IMG/VR virus record: IMGVR_UViG_3300045988_094011
Source: a virus
Length of the DNA stretch: 45,680 nucleotides
Reading direction: 5' to 3' (one strand)
Shown: positions 9,197-38,957 of the stretch, piece after piece
Layout of the letters: the number at the start of each line of letters is the position of its first letter
Position numbering within the stretch: position 1 is the first letter of the stretch
Notes under the pieces: generated by a model
Database searches by the model: none
What the model was told of the DNA's origin: nothing
Seen by the model: the letters and a program-made list of their open reading frames with translations, nothing else
Program-made: the position numbers and the translations under genes

Positions 9197-9367
9197 CTAC
9201 TTCTTATCTGTTTCTAAAATATCATTAATATAGTCTAATTGATAATCAGGAACACCCAGTATTGAATAATTTTTTGTGTCTTTTTTCTTTTCTGTAGTTT
9301 GTAATAATTTTTCAATCTTTTCTTGATTTTTAATCAACCATTTTAACTTTCTAAAAAATTTTAGCAT
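9197..9367 (-). CDS. Small 56-aa ORF between terL and portal (below the ORF-track cutoff)
   Basis: The ATG at 9367-9365 overlaps the terL stop (ATGCTAA). It reads MLKFFRKLKWLIKNQEKIEKLLQTTEKKKDTKNYSILGVPDYQLDYINDILETDKK and ends with TAG at 9199-9197, just before the portal SD. Confidence 0.45.
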   Translation of the reverse strand: MLKFFRKLKWLIKNQEKIEKLLQTTEKKKDTKNYSILGVPDYQLDYINDILETDKK

Positions 9368-10962
9368 ATACTATAACCTCCTGCACAACACTGTCTTGTG
9401 TTCATGCTCTCTTCTATATTATCCCTATTTATTATATCAATTATTTCCCTAAAAGACAATGATTTCTTTATGTCTGCATTTCCCTTTCTTTGTTTATCAA
9501 AGAATTCTATGTAATTTGAATATGCAACACGTTTCATATCTATGTAGTCATAAGGAACTTCTTGACAAATATATCTTAAACAGTCCATTAAGTGGTTATT
9601 CTTATCTATAGGCTTCTCACCTAGATTTTTATTCTTATTTCTTTCTTCTTGTGTAGGGTATCTATATTCACAACCCTCACGTAAAGTGTATGTCAAGTCA
9701 TTGAAAAATACAAGTAAACCTGCATACATCATATTTTTAACTCTCTGAATACCATCCTCAATATTGTTTATAGCACATTTTGTCACTATACCATGTTCAA
9801 GTTGTAGTTGTTGTTTATATGTACGACCTGTTGTCTTACTTCTCTTATCTGCAGATGGGTCTATAAGTGGCATATGTAAGCAACCTTGTGGTATATCACT
9901 TATCATTTTCTTAAACTCAGGAGCAACCTGTGCTAAAACCTGATTTGTCTTATAGTATTCTCTATAGAAATAGATTATACCTGTATTTGGGTCTTGTGCT
10001 CCCAGTAAAATAGCAGCTGGGTCATTAATACCTGGGTCATGTGCAATATATCTCGTCCAATCGTCTGGTATTGGAAAGGGCTCACACGTATGACTTAATA
10101 TATCAGGATAAACAGCACCCTCTGCATACTCTATAATACAGTCTACATAAAGTCTTACTTGCTCTGGAGTTAGTGAATTTACAACAGATTGTACAAATCC
10201 AGGTGGTAAGTAAGGATTATCTCTACTACTAGACAGAAATGCAGCCAAATCTGGGTTTCTATTTGTAATTCTCTTCTCATACATTTTTACAGTTTCTGCA
10301 ATAGATTTACTACCTTCTATATGGTCAGATGTAAAAAGTAAATCTCTTATAGGTCCTTGAGCTGGGTTTGAACATATAATACCGACAAAGTGTTCAACAC
10401 CATCTATAATACCATGTGTGTTTCTCAAACGTCTAACACACTCCTGGTAGATTTTAGGACTTATACCTGATGCTTCTTCTATATAGAATGCTGTTATGTT
10501 CATAGAACGAAACTTTTCTTCATCATCACTGGCAAAACCTGTTATTTTATGCCCATTAGTAAGGACTATTTCAATTTCAGCTTTAGTATCAGTCCACTTT
10601 TCCACAAATTTACGTGGTAAGTATTCATCAAAAATAGGCATAATTGCCTTAGAAAGTTGTTTTAGGGTTTGTGCTAGCATAATAGTCTGCCCATATGGTA
10701 CCGTAAGTGCATGATTTATAATCTCCATAACACTTGAGTTAGATTTAGCTGAGCCCATACCACCAATCTGTAATTTTATTTTATGTTTATCTTTGTGCAT
10801 AGCTAATTGATGAGGTAATGGAACATAATGTATGTATGCTGCATCACATGTGTCACAGTAACCATACTTATGATTACTTGTTTTATTAATAGTAATCTTA
10901 CCAACACCACAACATGGACATTTGTATACTAAAAAAGTCTTATCTTCCGATAACTTTTCCAT
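9361..10962 (-). CDS. terL: Terminase large subunit with an N-terminal Cys4 zinc-ribbon-like extension
   Basis: 533 aa with a Walker A-like GGMGSAKS, Walker B-like ITAFYIEEAS and a C-terminal nuclease-type acidic segment (IAHDPG). Strong SD (AAAGGAGG). The N-terminus carries CPCC..x17..CDTC. Confidence 0.85.
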   Translation of the reverse strand: MEKLSEDKTFLVYKCPCCGVGKITINKTSNHKYGYCDTCDAAYIHYVPLPHQLAMHKDKHKIKLQIGGMGSAKSNSSVMEIINHALTVPYGQTIMLAQTLKQLSKAIMPIFDEYLPRKFVEKWTDTKAEIEIVLTNGHKITGFASDDEEKFRSMNITAFYIEEASGISPKIYQECVRRLRNTHGIIDGVEHFVGIICSNPAQGPIRDLLFTSDHIEGSKSIAETVKMYEKRITNRNPDLAAFLSSSRDNPYLPPGFVQSVVNSLTPEQVRLYVDCIIEYAEGAVYPDILSHTCEPFPIPDDWTRYIAHDPGINDPAAILLGAQDPNTGIIYFYREYYKTNQVLAQVAPEFKKMISDIPQGCLHMPLIDPSADKRSKTTGRTYKQQLQLEHGIVTKCAINNIEDGIQRVKNMMYAGLLVFFNDLTYTLREGCEYRYPTQEERNKNKNLGEKPIDKNNHLMDCLRYICQEVPYDYIDMKRVAYSNYIEFFDKQRKGNADIKKSLSFREIIDIINRDNIEESMNTRQCCAGGYSIC

Positions 10963-11116
10963 AATTTACCTCCTTTTTAACACTATGCCAACACCAAACT
11001 GGTTTTTGAACGAACTACTACAAATAGCTTTAAAATAAGGATGGTTAAAAAGTTTTAAGTATAATTCAGTGTCAGCATACTGCTAAAAAGCAGTACATAA
11101 TTAGATTGGAGATTTT

Positions 11117-11291
11117 AGTATCCTTAATAGATACTGTCTAATGATATAATATAGATTTGCACTATATTTCTTACCACGATAGGTTGACTATTGCCTTTGT
11201 TACTTGTCCTATTGTTTTTGCTACAAGTAAGGAATAACTCTTTTTACTATATAAACTATATATCACTAGACACTACCTATTAAAGTAGTGT
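11117..11291 (-). ncRNA. Module U5
   Basis: H1 is ACACUAC-UUUAAUAG-GUAGUGU. An 11-bp helix CUAGUGAUAUA / UAUAUCAUUAG has 1 G-U and closes a ~110-nt internal domain. H2 is AGUAUC-UAUUAAG-GAUACU. Confidence 0.5.
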
Positions 11292-11321
11292 TTTTCTCTT
11301 GTGAGAAATAAAAATGAGCAT

Positions 11322-11437
11322 AGTACTTTAATAAGTACTGTACTAATGATAAAGCCACCACGGACGGTCTTGTCGTTAGAAGAGTCGAACTTCACTTTCT
11401 TACATATCATCAGTACACTACCTACTAGAGATAGTGT
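11322..11437 (-). ncRNA. Module U4
   Basis: H1 is ACACUA-UCUCUAGUAGG-UAGUGU. A 12-bp helix GUACUGAUGAUA / UAUCAUUAGUAC has 1 G-U. The internal domain carries a T-loop-like GAAG-UUCGACU-CUUC. The H2 equivalent is AGUACUU-AUUA-AAGUACU. The tail is AUGCUCAUUUUUAUUU. Confidence 0.5.
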
Positions 11438-11485
11438 TCACTGCTTATCCCCTCGGAGCTCGTCAGCAAATAAAATTAGAACTTC

Positions 11486-11615
11486 TAGTGTCTTATAGAC
11501 ACCATATCAAGTAAATATGTTGGAACAACCTCACTTATAGCAACAAGGTAATCATAGACCTGTCTAGTGTTCTATTTTTATATATTTACTCAATATGCTA
11601 CCTATAAGATAGCAT
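11486..11615 (-). ncRNA. Module U3
   Basis: H1 is AUGCUA-UCUUAUAGG-UAGCAU. A 15-bp helix AUAUUGAGUAAAUAU / AUAUUUACUUGAUAU has 2 G-U. H2 is UGGUGUC-UAUAA-GACACUA (1 G-U). The tail is AGUUCUAAUUUUAUUU. Confidence 0.55.
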
Positions 11616-11817
11616 CACTATTTTCAACATACTTAATATCAACGACATATTAGATATGTGATTTCATGTAGACGACTTCGTTCGTTGTCTAGGGTATTAG
11701 TCGTTTTCCCCACCTCTAAACTAAAGACTTTGTTTACTCTCATAATTAAATAATTTTAACAACTTCTTCGCAAACACAGGATTTTATGCGTTTTCTTAAA
11801 AGTAAAACTAGAACTGA

Positions 11818-11937
11818 TAGTGCCTTATAGACACCATAGAATAGATAAGAACTATATCTTCCCAATGTTCTACTGATTCATATAGTTAACCTTATAGAAC
11901 AGGTTTATCTATCCTATGCTACCTATGAGGGTAGCAC
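11818..11937 (-). ncRNA. Module U2
   Basis: H1 is GUGCUACC-CUCAUA-GGUAGCAU (1 G-U). A 13-bp helix AUAGGAUAGAUAA / UUAUCUAUUCUAU (1 G-U) encloses a possible pseudoknot (AACUAUAU/AUAUAGUU interleaved with GUUCUA/UAGAAC). H2 is UGGUGUC-UAUAA-GGCACUA (2 G-U). A U-rich tail follows. Confidence 0.55.
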
Positions 11938-11965
11938 TAAAGTAAATGAAAAAGTGGTTTTACCT

Positions 11966-12048
11966 GGCACCTTATAGGCACCAATAGACCTAGAACTCTG
12001 AGCATGCTTAATTCTAAATCTATTGCAACCTACGAGGCATCGTCGTAG
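11966..12048 (-). ncRNA. Module U1
   Basis: Given in RNA sense. H1 is CUACGA/UCGUAG (12048-12030, overlapping the stop of the upstream ORF). The long helix is CAAUAGA..UAGAA / UUCUA..UCUAUUG (12025-11982). H2 is GGUGCC-UAUAA-GGUGCC (11982-11966), which pairs only as RNA through two tandem G-U. Confidence 0.5.
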
Positions 12049-12539
12049 ATATCAGGTATTCTTATAATACATATGTTTCTATTATTCTCTAGTTGTTCTT
12101 GTTCTTCTAAGTTCTTAATAAGTTGTAAGTTATCACGTTTATTCTTGGCTGTGGGGTTGGCTAAGTTATCCTCAGCTGCAGCTTTTAAAAGTGTTCTTTT
12201 GTGCTTCTGTATATAAACACTTACGATTCTATCAGCTAAAAAGTCATTCCACTCATCAACTGTCGTGTTACTATACTTATCAGCTAAATCAAACTGATTC
12301 TTAAATATATTCTTAGCCATGTCAGCTGTATATAGACTGGCTAAATAGTTATATCTTTCTTTTTTGTTGTCATCTAAATGGGTAGCCTGAGATAGTGCTA
12401 CAGATAAGGGGTCCTCTAAAGTGAGTTTCCTTTTCTCTTTCTCAATACTCGAATATATGTTTGCTTCTTTATATTCTGAAGAATCCTTATCAAATAAAGC
12501 ACTGGTACCAAAGATGGCATCTAGTTCCTGTTCTGTCAT
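12030..12539 (-). CDS. Putative terminase small subunit / packaging-initiation protein (169 aa), by position only
   Basis: First gene of the minus-strand arm, upstream of terL. The listed start at 12566 would place the promoter -10 box inside the ORF, so the ATG at 12539 (MTEQELDAIF..) is preferred. No diagnostic motif recognised. Confidence 0.35.
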   Translation of the reverse strand: MTEQELDAIFGTSALFDKDSSEYKEANIYSSIEKEKRKLTLEDPLSVALSQATHLDDNKKERYNYLASLYTADMAKNIFKNQFDLADKYSNTTVDEWNDFLADRIVSVYIQKHKRTLLKAAAEDNLANPTAKNKRDNLQLIKNLEEQEQLENNRNICIIRIPDIYDDAS

Positions 12540-12554
12540 ATTATCACCAGTTAC

Positions 12555-12583
12555 ATTATAGCACACTTTTGGTTTTTTGTAAA
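12555..12583 (-). promoter_or_regulatory. Sigma-A-type promoter for the packaging/structural arm
   Basis: The minus strand reads TTTACA-aaaaaccaaaagtgtgc-TATAAT: a 17-nt spacer and a TGTGC extended -10 (-16 TRTG-like). Confidence 0.7.
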
Positions 12584-12772
12584 TTTTTTATTTTTCCCGT
12601 TTTTTTTTATTTTATGGAGTTGGAAGGGAGAAATCTTAATATAATATATCACGCACAGGCAAGGACTCATATAGACATCATTTCAAACCCACCCCAGGTA
12701 TGCGTAACTGTTACACATACAACAAAATATTTTCTAGCTTTCTCTTATTTATGGGCTTCAATTTATAAAATT

Positions 12773-12841
12773 CACATTATTACATAATATGTATATGCAA
12801 CCACTTCTTCACATTATTACATATATTACACATTATTACAT
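12773..12841. repeat. Three direct copies of CACATTATTACAT in the divergent control region (candidate operator/iteron sites)
   Basis: Exact 13-mers at 12773-12785, 12810-12822 and 12829-12841, plus a partial copy (gacacatt) near 12853. Confidence 0.85.
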
Positions 12842-13020
12842 TGTCGAATTATGACACATTGGAAAAAACTATACAGAAAACCTATACATTGAAAATTCAA
12901 TTTGCTCATCTGCTTAACATCAATTTTTTTAAAATTTTACGTTTTTTTGTCGTATTATGTTTAATTGGTTTTCATTATACAGTTATATTATATAATTATA
13001 ATAATATATTTATATAGTTG

Positions 13021-13120
13021 AAAAAAAGATGAAAAAGAAATTTGAAAAAAAAATTTTCACTGACTAGATTAACGCACAACTTGAAAATATTCAAAAAAAA
13101 TGAAAAAATTCACAAAAAAG
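13021..13120 (+). promoter_or_regulatory. Phased A-tract region (UP-element-like, probably bent DNA) upstream of the early promoter
   Basis: Runs of 5-9 A recur roughly every 10-13 bp (near 13021, 13032, 13045, 13093, 13103 and 13114), interspersed with repeated TGAAAAA. Confidence 0.5.
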
Positions 13121-13122
13121 CC

Positions 13123-13151
13123 TTGACATTACCAAAAATTGGTGATAATAT
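13123..13151 (+). promoter_or_regulatory. Strong sigma-A-type early promoter
   Basis: TTGACA (13123-13128), a 17-nt spacer, then TAATAT (13146-13151) preceded by a TG (extended -10). Confidence 0.75.
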
Positions 13152-13176
13152 TAAAGCAGACAAGGAGGAAAACAAG

Positions 13177-13278
13177 ATGAAAAAGTTAAAAAGTTTTATA
13201 GCTAAATATAAGATAATAATACTATTTATATTAGCTACATACGCACTATTATTCATAGATTGTTTACTACATAGATAA
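13177..13278 (+). CDS. 33-aa hydrophobic peptide, first early gene
   Basis: AAGGAGG lies 8 nt upstream of the ATG at 13177. It reads MKKLKSFIAKYKIIILFILATYALLFIDCLLHR, with one predicted TM helix. The listed longer ORF begins upstream of the promoter. Confidence 0.5.
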   Translation: MKKLKSFIAKYKIIILFILATYALLFIDCLLHR

Positions 13279-13348
13279 TAATGCTTTAGGGTTTGCCTGT
13301 TCCCACAAAAACAGGCACAATATAATTAGTAGAATAGGAGATAAAAAT

Positions 13349-13453
13349 ATGACAAAACAAGAATTTATTAAAAAATTAATATTAGCTAGATTAGAAGCAG
13401 AAAGAGTTAGAGTTCTACAAAACTCTACAGAAAATAGAAAGGGGTTAAAATAA
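13349..13453 (+). CDS. Possible 34-aa ORF
   Basis: A weak SD (TAGGAGAT) precedes the ATG at 13349. It reads MTKQEFIKKLILARLEAERVRVLQNSTENRKGLK and its stop is 1 nt before the next gene. Confidence 0.3.
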   Translation: MTKQEFIKKLILARLEAERVRVLQNSTENRKGLK

Positions 13454-13454
13454 T

Positions 13455-20540: not shown

Positions 20541-20804
20541 ATGTATGATAAATGTAGTGATTGTGAATACACAAATTATGATAATTTTGTTCAAAAAGTA
20601 GAAACTCAACAAAAAGAGTTTATAAAATATTTAGAAGATGGAATAAAGCAATATACTCCAAGTTTAAGATGGAAACATTATAACGAAGATGGTTTTAATG
20701 ATTATGATGTAGAAAATCCTAGCTGTATTGAAGTACAACCAACCGACAAAATTTTTAAAGAAATTTTACAAAAATACAAAGAAATAATAGGAGATGATAA
20801 ATAA
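20541..20804 (+). CDS. Hypothetical 87-aa protein
   Basis: ORF with an SD-like GAGAGTGATGAG upstream. Confidence 0.5.
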   Translation: MYDKCSDCEYTNYDNFVQKVETQQKEFIKYLEDGIKQYTPSLRWKHYNEDGFNDYDVENPSCIEVQPTDKIFKEILQKYKEIIGDDK

Positions 20805-29400: not shown

Positions 29401-30306
29401 ATGAATTTAAAAGAAAATAAAAGACTTAAAGAGATTAAATTATCTATGTATATCAATCATATTGATAAAGCAAAAGACAAACTATTATACAGTAGATTGA
29501 TGAAGTTATTAAGCTGTTTAGTTGCTACACTTGGAAGAGATGCACATAATACATTCTCCAAGATAGTAGAATATAGTATAGGAGAAAATTTTCTAAAGGC
29601 AGCTCCTAAAGAACTTGTAGCAACTTGCAGAACCTTCTTTTCAAACAAAAAAGCAGCTGAGAAGATAGGTATAACTAATTCATCTTTCTATAACAGATAT
29701 AGAGATTTGTTAGATAGGGACTTCATAACTGAAGAGTTTGTTGAGTCTTTACATCCTATGTTTGAAACACAAGAGGAACAATTTGTTATAGATTTCCTAC
29801 TAAGTTTTATTGAGAATTTTAAGTATGACGTGGGGCATTATGATGCAGAATTAAAGGACAAAGAAAGAACCTTAGAGATAGAATTCTGGTTGATATACGA
29901 CAAAGTTATGGGAATTTTACAAAATAGTATAGTCTTTGATAAATTCATATTTAATATATGTAATATATTTGAAATTGACTATGGTTCTATAGCACATCTA
30001 AAAAACAGTATACATCTGATAAATAGGTCTTACCCTAATTTCAGATATAATAATAGATACTTTATGCAAGAATTAGTATACTTATATACCAAAAAAGGCT
30101 TGAATAAAAGTGCAATAAGTTCTAGAGTACTTGGTAAAGACTTTTCATTCTTGTATAGGGGTACTAATAAGAAATATAATGACTTAATAGATAGTGACAA
30201 TGTGGAATGGCAATATGTTCCTACTCTTGACTGGGAACATATACAAAGGGGTGATGTTATGAAATTTATAGAATTGTTTCATTCATGGGTGATGTACGAT
30301 GTATAA
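29401..30306 (+). CDS. Hypothetical 301-aa protein (possible replication initiator/loader with HTH)
   Basis: ORF between the primase-helicase and the polymerase. Has an HTH-like segment AAEKIGITNSSFYNRYRDLL. Confidence 0.45.
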   Translation: MNLKENKRLKEIKLSMYINHIDKAKDKLLYSRLMKLLSCLVATLGRDAHNTFSKIVEYSIGENFLKAAPKELVATCRTFFSNKKAAEKIGITNSSFYNRYRDLLDRDFITEEFVESLHPMFETQEEQFVIDFLLSFIENFKYDVGHYDAELKDKERTLEIEFWLIYDKVMGILQNSIVFDKFIFNICNIFEIDYGSIAHLKNSIHLINRSYPNFRYNNRYFMQELVYLYTKKGLNKSAISSRVLGKDFSFLYRGTNKKYNDLIDSDNVEWQYVPTLDWEHIQRGDVMKFIELFHSWVMYDV

Positions 30307-31984
30307 TGATACTCAATTTTTGTTCAATAAATATAACTATAAAACACTAGAAGTAAAAAACCAAAAAGACATCGAAGAGATGGAATGGGATTTTGCTTTT
30401 AGCAATACACGATATTTTGCATATGATACAGAAACAACAGGTTTAAATTTCATAAAAGATATACCTTTCTTAGTAATATTTGGTTTTGACAAGAATATAT
30501 ACTATTGGGATGCAAACTATAAAGAGGCTACTTGTGCAATGTTTAAGATAGTACAAAAAACAGATAAAATGTTGTTTGCACATAATGCTAAATATGATTA
30601 TCATATGTTACATAACATAGGAACACCTATACCAGACGCCATTGAGTTGTCAGATAGTATTACACTATTTAGATTAATAAGTAGTTGTGATGATGATTTC
30701 CAAAGTATGCGTCTTGAAAAACTAGGAGAAAAATATGTAGACCCTAGTGCAAAATTTGCAGGACACGAAATCAAAAAGAGAATAGAACATATGAAAGCTG
30801 AACGTAAAAAGATGGTATGTAATAACTATAAAGCATTAACAGGAGAAAAATCATACACAAAGGCTTGGGAAACATTTACTAATAAAGTAAGATTTATAAC
30901 AAAATATCATGAGTGTTTTGATGATTATAAAGAACCAGGCTATTATGATGTTTATCTAGAAAATCCTGAATTAGTAAAAATGTATGCTATTGATGACGTT
31001 GTCATAATACTTGAATTTTTAAATAAAGCAGGTGCTATCTATGCTAAAAAATACTGGAGTAAGGATGGCATAGATACAAGAACATGGAAAAGAGAAAATA
31101 AACTGATTAGAGGTATTGCTACTATGGAACGTAATGGTTTCAAAGTAGACGTAGATTACCTTGTTAATTCTCACTACAGAATAGAAAAGTTTAGAGAGCT
31201 ATTATATGATAAATTGCATGAACTTACGCATAGTACATGGAAAGTAGGACAACACGTAGAGATTAAGAAGTTCTTTCACAATGAATTTGGTTTAGACCTT
31301 GAAAAGAGTGATAAGAAAGCTATACAACAACTTACGCATCATGAAGATGTTCGTATTTCTGAAATAGCTAAACTAATCATAAAATTAAGAACAGTAGATA
31401 AATGGCTATCTACGTATATTGATGGTGTTTTAAATAAAATAGTTGAAGTTGATGGTGAATGGCGATTGTATACATCTATTAATAATAATGGTGCTGTAAG
31501 TGGTCGTGTAAGTTGTGACCTACAACAGATGCCTAAATATGCCATAAATGAAACCGATGATGATAATGAGCTACTTTTAGATGAATCTGTTACTGATGAC
31601 GATGGTGTAGAATTATTTCACCCTAGAAAATTTGTTATACCTAGTACAGGTTATAAGTTGTACTTTGAAGATTATTCACAAATGGAATTAAGAATACAAG
31701 CATACTACACCATTTTAGTAGGACATACAGATTATAATCTATGTAGAGCATATATGCCCTATGATTGTAAACTAAAAGATGGTACATTGTTTGATTACAA
31801 AAATCCAGAACATATAAAGCATGCTTATGACTGGGAATGGTTTAATCATGATGGTACAGAATGGGAACCAACAGACTTACATACTAAGACAACTCTTACA
31901 GCATTCCCTGAATTTAAAGATAGAACAGATACAAAAGAGTTTAAAAAGAAATGGCGATATTTGGGAAAATCGACTAACTTCGCT
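30299..31984 (+). CDS. Family A DNA polymerase, exon 1 (3'-5' exonuclease domain, motif A, first half of motif B)
   Basis: Exo I FAYDTETTGL, Exo II/III-like AHNAKYDYHML, and motif A FEDYSQMELRIQAYY. Motif B begins RYLGKSTNFA and is then interrupted. The listed ORF runs a few codons into the intron (..EMIIC stop). Confidence 0.8.
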
Positions 31985-32647
31985 GAGATGATAATATGTT
32001 AAGAACTTTTGTTTGTAAAAAATGTGGTATTACATTTCAAAAAGAAATGAAGACATCTTATGCATGGTATTGTGAAGATTGCAGAAAGAAAAGAGACGTA
32101 GAAATAAGTATGTCTGTTAAGAAACGAAAAGCACCTACAACTGAAGTGGGAGTAGGCAGTGGAAATAGTTCTAAGAACAAAGGACATTACACACATGGAA
32201 GTTTTAAAACAGGTATACAAGCCTACAGAAATATCTACAAAGACAATCACAAAGAATTAAAATGTGAGCTATGTGGTAGCACAAAATACTTATGTATTCA
32301 TCACATAGATTCTAATAGATATAATAATGATGTAGCAAATTTACAATGCTTATGCAAAAGTTGTCATCAAAAACATCACATAAAAAGAAACAAAAAAGGA
32401 CAGTTTACGGCGAATTAAAACTGTGTGAACCTTGACAAGGGTGTCCTAGAGATAGGGCTAACGAGGGAAGCCTAAGTCAGAAATGATATGGTAATCTCGT
32501 GCCAAGCCTCTTATGAGGAAGGTGTAACGACTATGGGTGATGAATGTAACCCAGTACACTAACTATTGTCACGTTAGTGGAAGTGCACAGCAACTCATTG
32601 AGTTGAAGAAATAGTCTAGTCCTTATGGAAACATAAGGTAGTACACG
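31985..32647 (+). mobile_element. Group I self-splicing intron (663 nt) carrying an HNH homing-endonuclease ORF
   Basis: It splits polymerase motif B. The 5' splice site follows a U (31984) and the intron ends in G (32647). GGCGAA at 32409-32414 can pair with the exon end UUCGCU with a terminal G-U (P1). GNRA-capped helices are present: GUCCUA-GAGA-UAGGGC at 32443-32458 and CCUUAUG-GAAA-CAUAAGG at 32621-32638. The 3' part is noticeably GC-richer. Confidence 0.75.
31996..32418 (+). CDS. HNH homing endonuclease (intron-encoded)
   Basis: HNH motif CELCGSTKYLCIHHIDSNRYNNDVANLQCLCKSCHQKHH, with an N-terminal zinc ribbon CKKCG..CEDC. Confidence 0.85.
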   Translation: MLRTFVCKKCGITFQKEMKTSYAWYCEDCRKKRDVEISMSVKKRKAPTTEVGVGSGNSSKNKGHYTHGSFKTGIQAYRNIYKDNHKELKCELCGSTKYLCIHHIDSNRYNNDVANLQCLCKSCHQKHHIKRNKKGQFTAN

Positions 32648-33136
32648 AAAAATTATGGTTGTGGAGCTAAAACATTAGCATCTAATTTGAACATAGACTT
32701 AGAAACAGCAACAAAATTGTCTGATGCCTATAATAGTGCATATCCTGGTGTTATAGAATATCAAAAAGTGGTGCAAACTGAATTAAACATGAAAGGCTAT
32801 GTAACTAACTTATATGGTAGACGTTATTACCTAGAGAATAGTACAAACTTCTACAAAGCAAATAACTATCTTATTCAAGGAACAGGTGCTGATGCCTTAA
32901 AAGAAGTTGAAATAAAGATATGTGATTATCTAAAAGACAAGAAGTCTAGATTTATATTACCTATACATGATGAGCTAGCCATAGAAGTACACCCTGATGA
33001 AGAAGCATTTGTACCACAAAAAGTGCAAGAGATTATGCAAAGTGTGGGGGATACTATAAAGTGGGTGCCTATGGTAGCAGAAGTAGAAGCTACTGAAACC
33101 AATTGGGCAGAAAAGAAAGAGGTAAACTTTGAGTAA
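32648..33136 (+). CDS. Family A DNA polymerase, exon 2 (rest of motif B, motif C)
   Basis: Reading KNYGCGAKTLASNL.. in frame with the listed ORF 32687..33136 completes motif B (KSTNFA|KNYG). Motif C is PIHDELAIEV. Confidence 0.75.
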   Translation, partial: KNYGCGAKTLASNLNIDLETATKLSDAYNSAYPGVIEYQKVVQTELNMKGYVTNLYGRRYYLENSTNFYKANNYLIQGTGADALKEVEIKICDYLKDKKSRFILPIHDELAIEVHPDEEAFVPQKVQEIMQSVGDTIKWVPMVAEVEATETNWAEKKEVNFE

Positions 33137-33416
33137 AGAACAGAATATACAAACCTCTATAATGAATTATATTAGTTCAATAGGTGGTTTACCTCTAAAA
33201 TATAATAATATGGGTATCTATGCTACAGCAGGTGTGCCTGATATAATAGCATGTATAAAAGGAAGATTTGTTGCTATAGAAGTAAAAAAACTAGGTGGTA
33301 AACCATCGGCTTTACAAAAAGCATATATTAAGGCTATAAATGAAATAGGAGGGCTTGCCTTTTGGGCAGACAATCTAGATGATGTTAAGGACAAATTAAA
33401 AGAGCTACTTAGTTGA
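33129..33416 (+). CDS. VRR-NUC domain nuclease
   Basis: GVPDIIACIKGRFVAIEVKK matches the PD-(D/E)xK VRR-NUC core. A TTG start follows an AGAGG SD and overlaps the polymerase end. Confidence 0.7.
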   Translation: MSKEQNIQTSIMNYISSIGGLPLKYNNMGIYATAGVPDIIACIKGRFVAIEVKKLGGKPSALQKAYIKAINEIGGLAFWADNLDDVKDKLKELLS

Positions 33417-33432
33417 AGCTCTTTTTCTTTTC
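33398..33432. terminator. Bidirectional rho-independent terminator formed by the overlapping 3' ends of convergent genes
   Basis: Stem AAAAGAGCU / AGCUCUUUU (33398-33406 / 33417-33425) with a 10-nt loop. A T-run follows on the plus strand (tttttcttttc) and TTTAATTT follows on the minus strand. The two stop codons (33414-33416 plus, 33405-33407 minus) lie inside the hairpin. Confidence 0.7.
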
Positions 33433-36400
33433 ATTCTATTTAATTTTATACTATTACTAGCTGTCATTTCCTGAATAGTAGGTACATCCATACCTTGATT
33501 TTTTAATTGCTTTATAATAGCCTGATATTGTTCCATTTGGTCATACAATCCACTATTGACAACATTTTCTTGTTTAGTGTTTTGTAATACAGACCTAAAT
33601 ATCTCTGACCACAACTCACTAGATGATTTATCACCACTACTTTTCTCCAGTATTGCAGCTACTTTCTTAATTATGTTAGTAGAAACATTTTGTAATCCAA
33701 AGTTATTAAGTATTAACTCAGCACCATCAGTAACACTTGAAATACCTGTATTATCTATGCCTAGTTTGGCTAGATTGGTACTTATGGTGTTATACTTAGT
33801 GTCTTGACCAGTAAATAAGTTTTTTCCTGTGACAGCCTCTACAGGTGCCTTAATAAGGGGTGTTGCAGATGCTACTACACGTTGTAATGGTTTTGATATA
33901 AATTCACCTAAGTCTGATAGTGGTAGATTAGCTTTTAGGAACAATTGGTTACCGTCATCATCAGTAGCACCTGGTATAGGTATTTGCATACTTTCTTTTT
34001 GATATTGATAGTAACTATCTTCTGGTAAATCTTCATAAGTAGCATTTAATGCTTTTACAACATTCTTATACTTACGTGTGTTTTTAAATATGTTAGTCGC
34101 TTGGAACATTAAATTTTGTTTAGTGAATGTATAAAAAGGTATTATCTTTTTAACTACATTTTGCTCAAATTCACTCATATTTGAAGGGTCCATTAAAGCA
34201 TATTTAACAGCTTGTACAGGGTCTTTTGCATTCAATCTTTTTAAATACTTACCACCTTTTGCAATATCATCATTGGCATACATTAGTAAAGCCATACGGT
34301 TCATTGCATCCATGCTATTATTCATTTTCATATTTATATCAGAAACTTTATTAATTATGTTTTTATTTCCACCAAGTTTTAGTCCTTGTTGTACTTTTTG
34401 TAAATCTTGTACAGCAGTACCAGCTTGATTAAATCCTGCATTTGTAAATTGTTTAATTAAATCCCAAGTTGCAGATTCTTCAGCAGTTAATTTTGTACCT
34501 TTGGAAATCTTTTCTATAATACTATTCATACTATTTAAAACTTTTGTAGCTCTTGCTTGATATTTAGGAATTTGTCCTACAGGCATACCACTTAAGTACA
34601 TATTCAGTGTGTTACCTGTGTAGTTTCTAACTTGAAAACCAGGTGTTAAAACTGAGTACTTTTTGAATAGATTATTAATTTTATCTGTTAAATTAAGAAT
34701 GGCATTTACTTCTTTAGTGTTTTTTGTTGCAACACCTATTAAAGATGCAACACGTCTATCCATGTAATAAGTGTTCCCACGAAGATTATCCATCACACCT
34801 CTTAATTCTGGACTTATTTTTCCTTCTGATATAAGTGTTTGAACATCATTTAGTCTATCTGCAACATTTTTACCACTTACTCTTACCCAACCATTAGGTA
34901 CCTTATATCCCACATTTTCTACAGTTCTTACTACATTTGCATCATTAAATACTCCCATAGCTAAAGCATCTCTAAACACTATTGCTTCTCTGTTGGTGTA
35001 TTCGGCATTCTTTACAAAGTCTTCTAGACCTGCATAGAAGTTTAGGTCAAATAAAGTTTCACCTGCTTGTGATTCTAAAATAGATTTGGTTTTTGCTAAG
35101 TCCTTGATTTGTTTATCTACAGCAGCATCAGCAGCCTCATCAATACTTCCTAATTTAAAGTTTGTATTTTTTATAGCACCGTCTATACTTGAATTTAAAG
35201 CAGTCAAACTTTCTGTTAATTGTGTTTGTTTAAATGTTGCTTGCTCTCTAGCACTCTTTAATCTATCCAATTTTAGAGTTTCATTTGCATACTTTTGCAT
35301 ATTCTTAGCATTGTTATCTAAAGCCTTCATTGTAGTGTTATCTACATGACCATCAATAATATCTGTAACTTTTCTTAAACTATTTCCTTTTTCTTCAAGT
35401 TGTTTATTTATTTTACCAATCTTATTTGCAATATTTTTTACAGTTTTTTCATCTAAATTATCAACATCTGCTAACTTCTTAGTTAAACTATTTAGTTGCT
35501 TATTTAAATCACCAATATCTGCTGTGTTTTTAACAAGACTTTTTGTAACAGATTGGTCTTGTATTTTTGTAGCTTTATCAAGTATGTCGTCAGTTACTCT
35601 GTCTGTTATTTTTTTAAGATTACTGTTTGTATCATTAATTTTAGAAGAGAGATTGTCTACAGTTGTATTTACTTTAGAAAGTTTTTCATTAAGTTTTTTC
35701 ATTTTAACAGAGTCACTTTTCAAACCTTTTAACTCTGTCAAAGTATTCTGTAGTGTAGTTCTTTGTGTATTTGAGTATTTACCTTTAAGATTTTCTATTT
35801 GTTTACCTACTTGCTCTATTTCCCTTGCTTTTTCTGCTTGATATTGTCTGTTTGCTATAACAGCAGGTTGTCTGTATTCTTGACTAGAAAAAGAATCACC
35901 AGCAGAAAAACCATATCTTTTCAAGTTTTGTTGTCTTAAAGACTCTATACTGTTTTGTATTGTCTCCTTTTCAGCTGCACTCAAATTAGGGTCACTTAGT
36001 TTCGATGTTAGATTAGCTATTTGTGTATCTATATCAGAAGCTGTACCTTTTGCCTTTCTTATGTAACCTTGTCTATTAACTATATCACCATAATCAATAC
36101 CTGTTACGTCTTTTATGTTTTCTGCAATTTGTTTGTAACCTTGTTTATGGCTTTCTACTAAATTCATAAACTCTGGGTTATTTGAAAGCTCTGCTAAACG
36201 AGCGAGTTCATCTGCATTATATTCTAAATTATAATTTAAAGCTAAATTATTTACAGCTTTCTTAAAATCAGCATTTTTGTTAAATTGTTTTAAGGCTTCT
36301 TTGTTTTCTATTCTTAAGATACTGTTTTGATTTCTTAAAGCAGTTAATTCATTCTGAGCTTTCCTCAATTCATCAGGACTTAAGGTACCACTTGCTATAG

Positions 36401-37607
36401 AATCTTGCAATGCTTGTATTGCAGCTGCCTTAGTTTCACTAGTTGCATCTGTTGTAAGCTTTAAAGGTATATTAGAAGCCTCACTTGTTTGCTCTAATAA
36501 ATTTTTTATTGTATTAACACTTTCTTCACTACCTGAAAACTCTCCTGTTTCAATTAATTGTTTTATTGCATTTTTACCTCTAATTGTTGTATCCTTTGTA
36601 CTCTGTATTAAATTAGTGATATCTTCTGCAACTACTTTTTGTTCTTTTGTTAAAGCTTTCGCTAATCCAGAATCTGCATTTTCTTTAACCCATTTTTGAA
36701 CTGTATTTCCTTTAGTCTTTAAAAATGAATTTAAAGAAGTTAAATCATCTGCATATTTTCCAACATCTTTAGATGTATTTAATACATAATTATATGATAA
36801 ATCTTCTAAATTATCTATTGTACCTCTTGATAATTGTTCTATTAATGCTTCAGAATCTTGTGCACCACGTGCACTTGCCTTTAGTTTTCCTACAGCTGTT
36901 TTTCCTTGAGCAAATGCATCTTGAAAACCACGTTTTACATCAGCATAACCTGAAGCTCTTTTTCCAAAATCAGCTAAAGACAAACCTTGTGAAGCTAGAA
37001 AAGCTTCTTTTGTCATACCTGCTTGGTCTGCAAGTTTTCCTATTTTATTTAACTCAGCTTTGTCAAGTACCTGTAAACCTTTTGTAACACCTTTGTCTAA
37101 TACATTTACGCCTTTCTTTACACCTTTTTTAGCAAGGTTCATAACAGCATCTGACGCACTCTTTCCTCCAAAAAGTGCCCAATCCATAGGGTCACCTACA
37201 ATGTCAAGACCAAAACCAAGAACATCAGATAAGTCTAATTGCCCTTCAGTATCTGGCAGACCTAATCTGTCTACCAATATATCTTTACCTGATGTCTTTG
37301 TTTCTCCTGTTATACCTTCCCCTAAACCTGATAAGAAGTCACCACCAGACAAGGCTTCATTAACACCTGTAAATAAAGCATTACGTGGTCTATCTAAAAT
37401 TTCAAATATATCAAAAAGGACATTTTGGTCTTTTTCAAGATTCAATGCCTTTTCTACTACATTTCTTGTATCTGTTGCTTCTTCTGGGTCAATTCCTACA
37501 TTTTTTAATCTTGTTTCATAATTTTTAATTTGATTTTGAAGTTTATCTGTGGAGCTTTGTGTACTAGCAGAACTAGTTTTTTTTGTTTTAAATCTTTGTG
37601 CTGCCAT
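33405..37607 (-). CDS. 1400-aa virion protein (internal core/ejection protein or tape-measure-like)
   Basis: Largest ORF, with a strong SD (AAGGAGG) and long coiled-coil/low-complexity central region. It is the last gene of the structural arm. Function is inferred from size and position only. Confidence 0.5.
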   Translation of the reverse strand: MAAQRFKTKKTSSASTQSSTDKLQNQIKNYETRLKNVGIDPEEATDTRNVVEKALNLEKDQNVLFDIFEILDRPRNALFTGVNEALSGGDFLSGLGEGITGETKTSGKDILVDRLGLPDTEGQLDLSDVLGFGLDIVGDPMDWALFGGKSASDAVMNLAKKGVKKGVNVLDKGVTKGLQVLDKAELNKIGKLADQAGMTKEAFLASQGLSLADFGKRASGYADVKRGFQDAFAQGKTAVGKLKASARGAQDSEALIEQLSRGTIDNLEDLSYNYVLNTSKDVGKYADDLTSLNSFLKTKGNTVQKWVKENADSGLAKALTKEQKVVAEDITNLIQSTKDTTIRGKNAIKQLIETGEFSGSEESVNTIKNLLEQTSEASNIPLKLTTDATSETKAAAIQALQDSIASGTLSPDELRKAQNELTALRNQNSILRIENKEALKQFNKNADFKKAVNNLALNYNLEYNADELARLAELSNNPEFMNLVESHKQGYKQIAENIKDVTGIDYGDIVNRQGYIRKAKGTASDIDTQIANLTSKLSDPNLSAAEKETIQNSIESLRQQNLKRYGFSAGDSFSSQEYRQPAVIANRQYQAEKAREIEQVGKQIENLKGKYSNTQRTTLQNTLTELKGLKSDSVKMKKLNEKLSKVNTTVDNLSSKINDTNSNLKKITDRVTDDILDKATKIQDQSVTKSLVKNTADIGDLNKQLNSLTKKLADVDNLDEKTVKNIANKIGKINKQLEEKGNSLRKVTDIIDGHVDNTTMKALDNNAKNMQKYANETLKLDRLKSAREQATFKQTQLTESLTALNSSIDGAIKNTNFKLGSIDEAADAAVDKQIKDLAKTKSILESQAGETLFDLNFYAGLEDFVKNAEYTNREAIVFRDALAMGVFNDANVVRTVENVGYKVPNGWVRVSGKNVADRLNDVQTLISEGKISPELRGVMDNLRGNTYYMDRRVASLIGVATKNTKEVNAILNLTDKINNLFKKYSVLTPGFQVRNYTGNTLNMYLSGMPVGQIPKYQARATKVLNSMNSIIEKISKGTKLTAEESATWDLIKQFTNAGFNQAGTAVQDLQKVQQGLKLGGNKNIINKVSDINMKMNNSMDAMNRMALLMYANDDIAKGGKYLKRLNAKDPVQAVKYALMDPSNMSEFEQNVVKKIIPFYTFTKQNLMFQATNIFKNTRKYKNVVKALNATYEDLPEDSYYQYQKESMQIPIPGATDDDGNQLFLKANLPLSDLGEFISKPLQRVVASATPLIKAPVEAVTGKNLFTGQDTKYNTISTNLAKLGIDNTGISSVTDGAELILNNFGLQNVSTNIIKKVAAILEKSSGDKSSSELWSEIFRSVLQNTKQENVVNSGLYDQMEQYQAIIKQLKNQGMDVPTIQEMTASNSIKLNRMKRKRASTK

Positions 37608-38763: not shown

Positions 38764-38957
38764 CAAAAAGAACCATCAAGGTCCTTTTTACCAGTATGGA
38801 AATATTTAATTAATGGAGGGCTCGGAGAATTTTGCAATCTCAATCAAGGTGTTGCAGACCTATGCCTTACTTTTTGGCTACGAACCCACTTAAGAGGCTT
38901 TATACCTCTTTGATTTCACATTTAAAATGTCTTATCCTTCTTATTCATTATTTAATA

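Follow-up and report, generated by a model that had tools for sequence, protein, structure and literature searches.

Exchangeable structured RNAs in a common frame upstream of the terL gene of a phage

The ORF-free gap and its units

The window considered here is a stretch of 45,680 nucleotides of viral DNA (IMG/VR record IMGVR_UViG_3300045988_094011). On its minus strand lies terL (9361..10962), encoding the large terminase subunit, and upstream of it an ORF of 178 amino acids (12030..12566). Between the two is a gap free of ORFs, 10963-12029, directly ahead of terL and on the same strand. A sequence-only reading of the window had presented this gap as the sole long non-coding stretch of the genome, filled by five RNA modules, U1 to U5. 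The gap does contain U1-U5, but neither part of the description holds as worded. The region 12567-13454 is likewise poor in ORFs, with only short ones that start at TTG, and the gap holds two further elements: unit X, of about 190 nt, and a structure of about 135 nt at the ribosome-binding site of terL, which I call U6.

The upstream ORF had been called terS-like, a label that is positional only. The ORF is syntenic with terL and has 228 homologues, all unnamed, but it matches no profile of Pfam, PHROG, or the PDB. Foldseek found no significant fold match to its AlphaFold2 model (pLDDT 75): the best PDB match had an E-value of 1.5, the small terminase of HK97 one of 8, and the one viral match is uncharacterized. 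I considered whether the gap might be an exon or intron of terL and rejected the idea. TerL is complete in the window, its gene free of introns, and the group I introns or other inserts found in relatives sit inside terL (at residues 68/69, 311-313, and 459).

The five modules are where they had been placed on the minus strand, and the order claimed for them is seen: a hairpin (H1), a long helix (P), and a second hairpin (H2). The exception is U1 (11966..12048), which has no canonical H1, only half of its motif (12036-12026); the motif there, TCGTAGGTTGC, is the first frame motif of the gap, and the TAG stop codon of the upstream ORF lies within it. U1 is an almost empty cassette, in which a helix of 16 bp (12025-12010 with 11997-11982) closes a loop of 12 nt and is followed by H2 (11982-11966; GGUGCC-UAUAA-GGUGCC). 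The equivalent position holds a cargo (so I call the RNA enclosed by P) of 73 nt in locus L012 and of 41 nt in locus L229.

U2 (11818..11937) has a frame of type A, with H1 at 11937-11916, P formed by 11917-11905 and 11848-11836, and H2 at 11837-11817, and its cargo is a pseudoknot RNA of 56 nt (11904-11849). In U3 (11486..11615), P (11596-11580 with 11520-11504) and H2 (11503-11487) belong to a frame of type B, which encloses 59 nt (11579-11521). The type C frame of U4 (11322..11437; P 11416-11405 with 11351-11340, H2 11339-11322) encloses 49-53 nt that include a hairpin resembling a T arm, GAAG-UUCGACU-CUUC, and the type D frame of U5 (11117..11291; P 11271-11259 with 11148-11136, H2 11135-11117) encloses 110 nt. 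What had been taken for a spacer between U2 and U3 is unit X (about 11800-11630), a conserved RNA with no frame, composed of a 5' hairpin (AAACRC..GUGUUU), a helix (UUUAGAGGURGGG..CCCUAGA), and a long-range helix (CAACGAA..UUCGUUG). The gap ends with U6 (10963..11098), the leader of terL, in which the ribosome-binding site is preceded by a long helix, GCUGACACUG../..CAGUUUGGUGUUGGC, and this in turn by the hairpin GUACUGC-UUUUU-AGCAGUAU.

The P helices pair as had been proposed, and U-rich tails are indeed present 3' of U2, U3, and U4. The helices were also said to be unrelated in sequence. In fact only a few types can be distinguished, and these are kept across phages; the helices of U4 and U5 have UGAUAUA/UAUAUCA in common. 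The idea that the five modules are paralogs is right for their frames and wrong for their inner domains, which belong to unrelated families of RNA and are exchanged from frame to frame.

No occurrence of the H1 and H2 motifs was found elsewhere in the window, and none of 50,697 GenBank phage records searched by blastn matched the gap. The modules had been thought to fit no known class of RNA, and Rfam bears this out. At gathering thresholds the sole match in the whole window is a tRNA at 38817-38887, outside the gap, and within the gap the families of phi29-type pRNA, ROOL, GOLLD, tRNA-like RNAs, and self-cleaving ribozymes do not reach threshold. Even at E <= 10, the region 10900-12150 gives just five matches at the level of chance (miRNA, snoRNA, FopS), all far below thresholds. 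Neither ARAGORN, which reports no tRNA anywhere in the window, nor the Rfam tRNA model (RF00005) finds one in the gap.

Folding on the sense strand

Slightly extended, the helices of U1 through U5 contain 122 Watson-Crick pairs, 16 G-U pairs, and one A-C pair. The earlier count, 11 G-U and no A-C, was therefore right in its excess of G-U and incomplete in its numbers. The claim that H2 of U1 pairs only as RNA is correct, its two central G-U pairs being A-C mismatches on the opposite strand. The same bias pervades the family of related modules described below, where over 48 distinct frames the ratio of G-U to A-C is 105:10 in the outer stalk, a part of the alignment on which the module search did not draw, and 34:4 in H1. 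What is conserved, as had been supposed, is the folded structure of the transcribed strand and not palindromes in double-stranded DNA; a strand asymmetry of this kind argues against sites that act as duplex DNA. Calculated energies point the same way. The minimum free energy (MFE) of the whole gap is -299.9 kcal/mol in the sense orientation and -249.6 in the antisense, each unit has a lower MFE in the sense orientation, and the z-score favors the sense strand for every unit but U3 (antisense -4.7, sense -3.8).

The loop and 3' arm of H1 are complementary to the 5' arm and loop of H2, and an extended helix can therefore form in place of the two hairpins. The extended helix is the MFE fold of U1, U3, U4, and U5, and constrained folds of U2 and U3 put the two alternatives at nearly the same energy. 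Both show covariation. Over 23 aligned pairs and 48 frames the extended stalk is 97.2% paired, 17 of the 23 pairs exhibit double changes, and the covariation score is 0.692, as compared with 0.259 for shuffled alignments and at most 0.136 for slid controls, counts that draw on sequences related to each other and on modules for which the pairing of P was itself a search criterion. The covariation that had been noticed among the paralogs of the window is strong in the frame alignment of the family. Viewed as DNA, the same ends give inverted repeats of 25-28 nt with 81-88% complementarity (I1, I2, I3; 73% in I5); a further inverted repeat, I4, belongs to U6.

One frame in many phages

A first scan of IMG/VR with a degenerate motif returned mostly chance matches, which were filtered by a finder that takes structure into account. 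Of the 269 sources fetched, 79 proved under strict settings of the finder to contain modules, 124 in total, and shuffled copies contained none. The H2 motif occurs in 30 metagenome contigs. Amongst 185,579 species genomes, the motif appears only in one phage-sized contig, binned with a gut Bacilli MAG, and in one probable chance match.

The consensus frame begins with (GCUAYC)-YUWAUA-GGUAGY, followed by one strand of P, and ends with the other strand, P', followed by RGURYC-UAUAAG-(GRCAC). G16, G17, A19, and G20 on the one side and G51, U52, and A60 on the other are invariant, as is a G-G mismatch. Near-identical frames are found in phages that have almost no proteins in common. Conservation of sequence thus goes far beyond what a generic processing stalk needs, which implies either a specific partner or very recent spread.

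What the frames enclose varies from 8 to about 350 nt. One cargo may be found in different frames, and one frame with different cargos; in U1, L186, and L005 the frame is empty. All of the modules are co-oriented with the flanking genes and tRNAs.

A rival reading is that the modules are selfish palindromic DNA, akin to miniature inverted-repeat elements (MITEs), that would move between phages and insert at module boundaries, with RNA folding a by-product and the inner sequences passengers. Bacterial MITEs that fold in RNA are well known: Correia/NEMIS, ERIC, RUP, and BOX. The modules are like them in having ends that resemble terminal inverted repeats (25-30 bp), in length (80-400 bp), in lying between genes and being co-transcribed, and in forming long RNA hairpins that could be substrates of RNase III. 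Their presence or absence differs among close relatives, and phages with almost no proteins in common have near-identical frames, as just described. Two unrelated upstream ORFs terminate at TAG within TATAGGTAGC, HNH and other genes are found in the slot too, which makes it a hot spot, and the terL genes of relatives are rich in introns. Ends like inverted repeats, empty frames, and polymorphism of presence and absence are all things that fit selfish DNA too.

It is hard, however, to see why such elements should take a single orientation, the orientation of their neighbors, or preserve G-U over A-C in so lopsided a ratio. MITEs have a common interior derived from a parent; the modules instead enclose structured RNAs, including real tRNAs and a pseudoknot, that are individually conserved and covarying. 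No target-site duplications were seen by inspection of the flanks, there is no transposase among the annotated ORFs in or near the arrays, and the modules are confined to phages, being absent from bacterial chromosomes in the species genomes searched (apart from the probable chance match). In short, the terminal inverted repeats of a MITE are there, and the common interior, the insertion in both orientations, and the target-site duplications are not. I regard an origin as selfish DNA as quite unlikely.

The cargos

Four of the RNAs in the window, the U2 pseudoknot, unit X, and the cargos of U3 and U5, are independent structured RNAs. The U2 cargo belongs to a family found in nine phage contigs, 93% paired and with double changes in 13 of its 32 pairs; the pseudoknot helix, GUUCUA:UAGAAC, is paired in every case and has two covarying pairs. 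Unit X recurs as a conserved RNA in 13 contigs or more, of which L174 and L223 show compensatory changes (A>G / U>C). It gives no thermodynamic signal (z = -0.1). Relatives of the U3 cargo are found within other types of frame in L079, L195, L237, and L238, and one inner helix covaries (CAGGU/ACCUUG versus CAGCA/UGCUUG). The U5 cargo recurs in type C frames of L079, L226, L227, and L228. The U4 cargo has no relative in the IMG/VR scan. Elsewhere the cargo may be a tRNA: tRNA-Trp in L168 and, in L139, an Arg-like tRNA for which the inner part of P serves as acceptor stem.

Then there is the company that the modules keep. tRNAs lie on the same strand as the modules in 13 of 13 and 11 of 11 loci, and ROOL RNA directly adjoins modules in seven (L112, L187, L240, L241, L256, L260, and L261). 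The same frames and cargos (U2, X, U3, and U5) turn up again in such loci, with tRNAs of like orientation and with ROOL adjacent. The gap is a co-oriented cluster of RNAs with no ORFs, its contents common to tRNA/ROOL loci, and it probably belongs with islands of that type.

Turnover of the island and packaging

The position of the gap next to terL had been taken, as speculation, to suggest a role in packaging or in the virion, which might be that of an RNA like the pRNA of phi29 or that of a pac site, DNA palindromes read by the small terminase. In favor are the repeated palindromic hairpins of the gap and the fact that in other lineages, too, the modules precede terS or terL. Like pRNA, the modules are phage non-coding RNAs encoded near packaging functions. 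The resemblance ends there. Neither pRNA nor any other Rfam family matches the modules, which are multiple, unrelated to each other in content, and dispensable in close relatives. The relatives that lack the island have the same upstream ORF and TerL proteins 59-81% identical to that of the window, and in three of them (L002, L010, and L011) the two genes are separated by just 0-14 bp. In others the slot is occupied by a metallophosphatase gene, by HNH ORFs, or by another ORF. Conversely, the window, L012, and L229 share an upstream ORF that is 99% identical, yet they possess three different islands with different numbers of cassettes. Other phages have arrays that stand alone with a terminator-like end, and the locus is of the tRNA/ROOL type. 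The strand asymmetry of G-U pairs speaks in addition against a duplex pac site. Comparison amongst these phages would seem largely to refute a function in packaging, and I consider one highly improbable.

Probable transcription and the leader of terL

A promoter-like site, TTTACA-17-TGnTATAAT, is found at 12583-12555, and the RNA of the island is probably transcribed together with the late (packaging) genes. The region might instead serve purely in cis, as a leader of the late operon that stabilizes or punctuates the mRNA, causes pausing or attenuation, or tunes the translation of terL, and no RNA need be released. U6 argues for this. When it adopts its predicted extended fold, the hairpin region is taken up in pairing with AUAGUGUUAAAAAGGAG, and the ribosome-binding site of terL is masked. 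U6 is present also in L012, L229, and L008, and the same design in a different sequence is found in L014 (z = -6.5), where again the ribosome-binding site is predicted to be hidden. In L003, L005, and L006 the last module ends with ...CTTATAAG, followed by a ribosome-binding site and ATG. There are also the U-rich tails 3' of H2, and several unrelated lineages have their arrays immediately ahead of terS or terL.

Against this, the terminator scan reported no H2 of the window, the one H2 and tail that it judged terminator-like being in L168. The arrays of L168 and L079 are separate units closed by terminator-like sites before terS, and some relatives, as noted, do without any gap. Moreover, control in cis needs no changing set of unrelated conserved cargos, nor tRNAs, nor ROOL. 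A leader that acts in cis and does nothing else is an unlikely account of the island, though hiding or exposing the ribosome-binding site of terL through the choice between hairpin and extended helix may well be how U6 works.

A model of framed cassettes

I propose that the gap is an accessory island of non-coding RNAs, of the tRNA/ROOL type, made up of framed cassettes for the expression and maturation of small RNAs, a proposal that I give an even chance of being right. The frame can adopt either of two folds: two hairpins with a helix of 12-17 bp between them, or a continuous stalk of about 24-30 bp. The stalk would join the 5' and 3' ends of the cargo, acting both as an insulator of folding and as a stem for maturation, to be cut by an RNase specific for double strands or hairpins, most likely of the RNase III or mini-III type. 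The stub left after cutting may protect the small RNA that is released. With P of 11-20 bp plus 11 or so further pairs, the extended helix exceeds the duplex of at least about 20 bp expected of an RNase III-type stalk, a length that would fit the substrates of double-strand RNases. Once released, the cargos might act in trans, possibly supplying tRNA or serving as decoys in the conflict between phage and host.

The model also offers a means by which contents change. Frames that are nearly identical would provide homology for the swapping of [P-cargo-P'] units between co-infecting phages, which would explain the extreme turnover of the island.

Stalks of this sort have ample precedent. The 5' and 3' flanks of bacterial rRNA and scRNA pair into stalks that are cut by RNase III or mini-III, and the tRNA cluster of phage T4 holds the stable RNAs C and D. 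In the modules, too, the flanks of the cargo pair, several RNAs would share one transcript, and tRNAs are clustered with them. Here, however, many unrelated cargos in unrelated phages have a single frame sequence in common, the stalk has to compete with two flanking hairpins, and cleavage is something I propose by analogy.

No candidate for an enzyme acting on the frame was found near the arrays or among the annotated ORFs of the window. PHROG annotation of 24 of the larger ORFs of the window gave only genes for replication, recombination, and structure, plus an HNH endonuclease. Clustering of 1,021 ORFs from 49 loci that bear modules turned up no RNase, ligase, Ro/Rsr, or RtcB; the recurrent neighbors are terS, terL, portal, a RusA-like resolvase, an HTH-like ORF, and proteins without a name. 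One protein of 87 amino acids (20541-20804 in the window) is common to many of the phages with modules. It has no significant Pfam domain, its sole match, to RmuC (E = 0.079), being far below the cut-off.

Some observations sit uneasily with framed cassettes: unit X, which has neither a frame nor a thermodynamic signal, the orphan cargo of U4, the failure to find a candidate enzyme, and the conservation of the frame sequence beyond the needs of a processing stalk.

A bolder form of the idea deserves mention. The frames might constitute a dedicated RNA socket, a bistable stem recognized in a sequence-specific manner by a factor of the host or phage and used to express, mature, and exchange small structured RNAs, an RNA analogue of the integron that would operate alongside the ROOL nanocage RNA in phage-host conflict. 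I put this forward tentatively, as possible and no better than that. Integron cassettes with their attC sites and the mobile PeSL (promoter/stem-loop) cassettes of T4-type phages provide the comparison: they likewise have a conserved, strand-specific, structured boundary and exchangeable contents that are arrayed at a fixed slot and rapidly reshuffled. The modules differ in that the contents are non-coding RNAs, the boundaries pair across the cargo, and the exchange would proceed by homologous recombination. No integrase is found among the annotated ORFs of the window or the recurrent neighbors, and the frame motifs, TATAGGTAGY and RGTRYYTATAAG, do not match the core sequences of attC (RYYYAAC/GTTRRRY). 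The socket design and its function appear not to have been described previously.

Relation to known islands and significance

Islands of tRNA genes in phages and prophages are known to carry ROOL or GOLLD RNAs (PMC5737381, PMC12286853). The framed modules resemble these islands in occurring within co-oriented tRNA clusters, adjoining ROOL in the loci given above, and in their setting, phages of the Firmicutes type from gut or rumen; a terminal stem also closes ROOL, and at about 28 bp it too is long. The island of the window differs in having neither ROOL nor tRNA, in the small size of its units (80-175 nt), and in the common frame with exchangeable contents, on which both papers are silent. 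A catalogue of structured RNAs, drawn like this work from IMG/VR, lists 14 motifs upstream of genes for large terminases as well as tRNA-like motifs (PMC10690425), and it may already include some of the individual modules. As judged from the descriptions in its main text, the catalogue presents single motifs with no function assigned and makes no mention of a common frame, swapped cargo, or adjacency to ROOL. More generally, the available portions of the literature on ROOL and GOLLD, on tRNA islands, and on phage structured RNAs contain no description of a frame of this design with swapped cargo.

ROOL and GOLLD are amongst the most striking RNAs of bacteria and phages with no known function, the one clue being that they sit near tRNA islands. 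It is now evident that islands of this kind also hold small RNAs with a common frame, conserved in sequence and capable of two states, whose contents are freely exchanged. The factor that reads the frame, and the RNAs that accompany ROOL, may offer a handle on what the islands do. No fewer than four new motifs of conserved, structured RNA come from this one window: the U2 pseudoknot, unit X, and the cargos of U3 and U5. If the frame is indeed a natural stem for insulation and maturation, then it could serve as a tool for the expression of arbitrary small RNAs. Should the idea of a socket prove correct, the phages would possess a library of tRNAs, tRNA mimics, the U2 pseudoknot, unit X, and others, useful for example as decoys for defenses that target tRNA or other RNA, and several of the cargos would represent new classes of functional RNA. 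The locus is one of the hypervariable accessory regions of phage genomes, made up of genes for RNA rather than genes for protein.

The gap before terL

The gap of 1067 nt (10963-12029) is bounded by terL (9361-10962, minus strand), which matches PHROG_2 and Terminase_3, and by a 178-aa ORF (12030-12566, also minus). The sequence-only reading had it filled by five units of structured RNA. All five, U1 to U5, lie where that reading placed them on the minus strand, each a hairpin (H1), then a long helix (P) closing an internal cargo, then a second hairpin (H2). They do not account for the whole gap: the stretch between U2 and U3 (unit X, ~11800-11630, minus) is a separately conserved RNA, and the last 135 nt (U6, minus) fold much like a frame, with the ribosome-binding site of terL hidden in the extended fold. 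The design of U6 recurs in a relative, L014, with different sequence. U1 is essentially an empty frame, that is, H1, P and H2 with almost nothing inside. No further copies of the H1 and H2 motifs occur elsewhere in the 45.7-kb window.

Counted on the minus strand, the helices of the five units contain 122 Watson-Crick pairs, 16 G-U pairs, and one A-C. The minimum free energy (MFE) of the whole gap is -299.9 kcal/mol in the sense direction versus -249.6 in the antisense, and sense lies below antisense in every unit, with sense z-scores of -3.3 to -6.7. The G-U bias, the lower sense MFE, and the covariation described below show, by comparison of sequences, that the structures belong to the sense strand, as had been claimed, and are under selection for pairing.

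The sequence-only reading could not match the architecture to a known class, nor did the searches: in Rfam 15 the gap has no match at gathering thresholds and only chance-level matches at E <= 10. ARAGORN found no tRNA, and no DNA similar to the gap was found in GenBank phage records.

One frame, two folds

A structure-aware finder, applied after scans for the motifs in IMG/VR, metagenomes, and GTDB genomes, recovered 124 modules, 96 of them distinct, from 79 of the 269 sources fetched; shuffled copies yielded none. One probable chance match aside, the H2 motif appeared in 185,579 species genomes only on a contig of 48 kb, the size of a phage, which is binned to a Bacilli MAG from the human gut; the modules are therefore phage-borne. 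The motif also stands on very long metagenome contigs (L243, 218 kb; L265, 124 kb; L268, 168 kb, human gut), which may be large phages or else prophages within bacterial chromosomes, and from which the host could be identified. The frames are nearly identical, although most of the phages that carry modules have almost no proteins in common with the window. P sorts the frames into a few types, A to F, and an H2 beginning GGTG goes with an H1 ending GGTAGC, one beginning AGTA with GGTAGT.

The 5' arm and loop of H2 are complementary to the loop and 3' arm of H1, so P can be extended by ~11 pairs into a single stalk of ~24-30 bp. This stalk is the MFE fold in U1, U3, U4, and U5; in U2 and U3 it lies within ~2 kcal/mol of the two-hairpin fold. 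When 48 distinct frames are aligned, with a linker in place of the cargo, 97.2% of cells in the stalk are paired, and double changes occur in 17 of 23 pairs. Covariation scores 0.692, where shuffles give 0.259 and slid registers at most 0.136. Because pairing of P was a search criterion and pairing of the outer stalk was not, the outer 11 pairs are the informative ones. There G-U outnumbers A-C by 105 to 10, pair 21-50 is CG in 32 frames and UA in 14, and pair 12-59, which sets loop against loop, is UA in 31 and AU in 11.

The H1 5' arm is present in 40 of the 48 frames, missing where an ORF, ROOL, or tRNA precedes the module, and the H2 3' arm is missing where a ribosome-binding site comes next. 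One pair outside P the extended fold has an invariant G-G mismatch, while the hairpin fold pairs both Gs normally, so both folds seem to be maintained. Conservation of the frame sequence points to a specific, putative partner; clustering of neighbour genes revealed none.

The cargos

Within one frame type a cargo can be as short as 8 nt or as long as about 350, and cargos are unrelated between phages. Individual cargos are nonetheless conserved families, recurring in different frames. That of U2 is found in 9 contigs and folds as a double hairpin of 55 nt with a pseudoknot of 6 bp: it is 93% paired, with double changes in 13 of 32 pairs, and the pseudoknot is 100% paired with two covarying pairs. 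The U3 cargo, whose inner helix covaries, occurs also in L079, L195, L237, and L238, and the U5 cargo in L079, L226, L227, and L228, there in C-type frames. Unit X, which has no frame, recurs in 13 contigs or more, and one of its helices, a long-range one, shows compensatory changes. The U4 cargo is an orphan in IMG/VR, with a T-arm-like hairpin, a feature of 4 of 60 cargos versus 0.08 expected. Some cargos are tRNAs: a tRNA-Trp with CCA (L168) and an Arg-like tRNA in which the inner part of P serves as acceptor stem (L139). Frames and cargos are separable and quickly exchanged.

The slot in relatives

Among IMG/VR relatives whose TerL is 59-84% identical to that of the window, the distance from the homologue of the 178-aa ORF to terL varies widely: about 0-14 bp in L002, L010, and L011, 110 in L009, 185 in L014, 370 in L003, 430 in L005, 460 in L008, and 1060-1130 in L012 and L013. 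The slot holds framed modules in L003, L005, and L012, ORFs containing HNH in L013, an ORF in L008, and, in L230 (2250-3305), L231 (4465-5385), and L232 (1347-2267), a gene for a metallophosphatase (Metallophos), with module-like hairpins ahead of it. The window, L012, and L229 have upstream ORFs that are 99% identical, yet three different islands. With cargo lengths in nucleotides, the window reads U1(12), U2, X, U3, U4, U5, U6; L012 reads A(73), A(44), E(about 130), further elements, D(154), U6; and in L229 a B-type helix enclosing 41 nt of cargo sits between U1 linkers, followed by A(38), E(104), U6. The A-type helix of L229 carries a compensatory change, G-C to A-U.

The sequence-only reading had suggested, as speculation, a packaging-related or otherwise virion-associated role. 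Islands that differ or are absent in such close relatives exclude an essential packaging role, and that the gap is a packaging RNA or a pac DNA site, contradicted by these comparisons, is very improbable indeed. The finding in the gap is real, but it is not a packaging element. The relatives show the slot to be accessory and hypervariable and the island, to judge from these genomes, dispensable.

terL itself is interrupted in L010, L011, L012, L013, L014, L019, L229, and L234, at three sites (residues 68/69, 311-313, and 459), by inserts of 222-998 bp. Rfam identifies the 68/69 inserts of L013 and L019 as group I introns, and one insert, in L234, has an HNH_3 ORF; the window's terL has none of the relatives' inserts. 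The region around terL attracts mobile DNA. Might the modules be selfish, MITE-like DNA themselves? Their inverted-repeat ends and polymorphism would fit, but it is quite unlikely, given modules in a single orientation, the G-U bias, and cargos that are structured and sometimes tRNAs.

tRNA and ROOL islands

ROOL and GOLLD, large non-coding RNAs without known function, lie near phage and prophage tRNA islands (PMC5737381, PMC12286853). The gap is homologous to such islands. Wherever tRNA genes lie in or beside an array (13 of 13 loci from IMG/VR, 11 of 11 from metagenomes), they share the strand of the modules, and ROOL (RF03087, 157-175 bits) directly adjoins modules in L112, L187, L240, L241, L256, L260, and L261, some of which may be near-duplicates of one another. 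The usual order is tRNA-Gln, ROOL, module(s), tRNA-Leu. In L112 (11086-11700) and L187 (3100-2480, minus) ROOL is closed by a ~28-bp terminal helix, AATATTAATRTTCTTTGACAATTTGTTAAA / TTTAACAAATTGYCAAAGAATATTAA, which begins directly after the CCA of tRNA-Gln and stops exactly at TAGGTAGC, a motif of the module that follows; the lack of spacers suggests one tightly packed precursor. In L174 (5390-5420) the 3' end of tRNA-Ile (..GCCUACCA) doubles as the 5' arm of the next H1, CCUACC-AAUUUUAUA-GGUAGC, so that hairpin and mature tRNA end are mutually exclusive.

In other lineages a RusA-like or HTH-like gene is followed by the array, then terS (PHROG_51), terL, and portal, and a terminator-like site of the same strand closes the array. 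In both the RusA lineage and that of the window, the stop codon of the upstream ORF is the TAG within TATAGGTAGC. Repeated ATGTCC(C/G)A boxes lie between an HTH-like ORF and the array just downstream (L079 2690-2750, L168 5950-5990, L174 5215-5250); a phage regulator that drives transcription of the array may bind them.

Other features of the window

A polA-like DNA polymerase gene (30299-33136, plus) is split: a 567-aa ORF matching positions 655-1026 of PHROG_17 is followed by an HNH endonuclease ORF (31996-32418) and a 149-aa ORF (32687-33136) matching positions 1086-1238. It looks like an HNH-associated interruption, judged from the ORFs. Far from the island, between two minus-strand ORFs, Rfam finds a tRNA that ARAGORN missed (38817-38887, minus, 42.9 bits), by eye a divergent gene resembling tRNA-Cys(GCA), with an odd T-loop and its CCA encoded. 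A second ORF-poor stretch (12567-13454, ~890 bp), with only short TTG-start ORFs, is where minus- and plus-strand gene blocks diverge and GC skew changes sign; it contains a promoter-like site, TTGACA-17-TAATAT (13123-13151, plus). A 1400-aa ORF (33405-37607, minus) and the next ORF, of 385 aa, have no PHROG match.

A model for the cassette

I propose, giving the whole picture an even chance, that the cassette is a unit of expression and maturation. The frame would bring both ends of the cargo together in a stalk whose length suffices for a double-strand RNase, would insulate the folding of the cargo from its neighbours, and would leave behind a stub that protects. Homology for cassette exchange would come from the conserved linkers, H1 and H2, and U6 would put the same choice of hairpin or stalk to use on the terL ribosome-binding site. 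U6 and the position before terL would also suit a purely cis-acting leader, but it is too much to ask of a leader that its arrays stand alone elsewhere with such diverse cargos, and I consider it unlikely.

The literature searched, on ROOL/GOLLD, tRNA islands, and phage structured RNAs, contains no description of these frames; single motifs may already stand in the published IMG/VR catalogue (PMC10690425). To the tRNA/ROOL islands, themselves poorly understood, the analysis adds an undescribed frame of modular design and several new structured RNA motifs, and the comparative context makes the island more interesting than its first description did.
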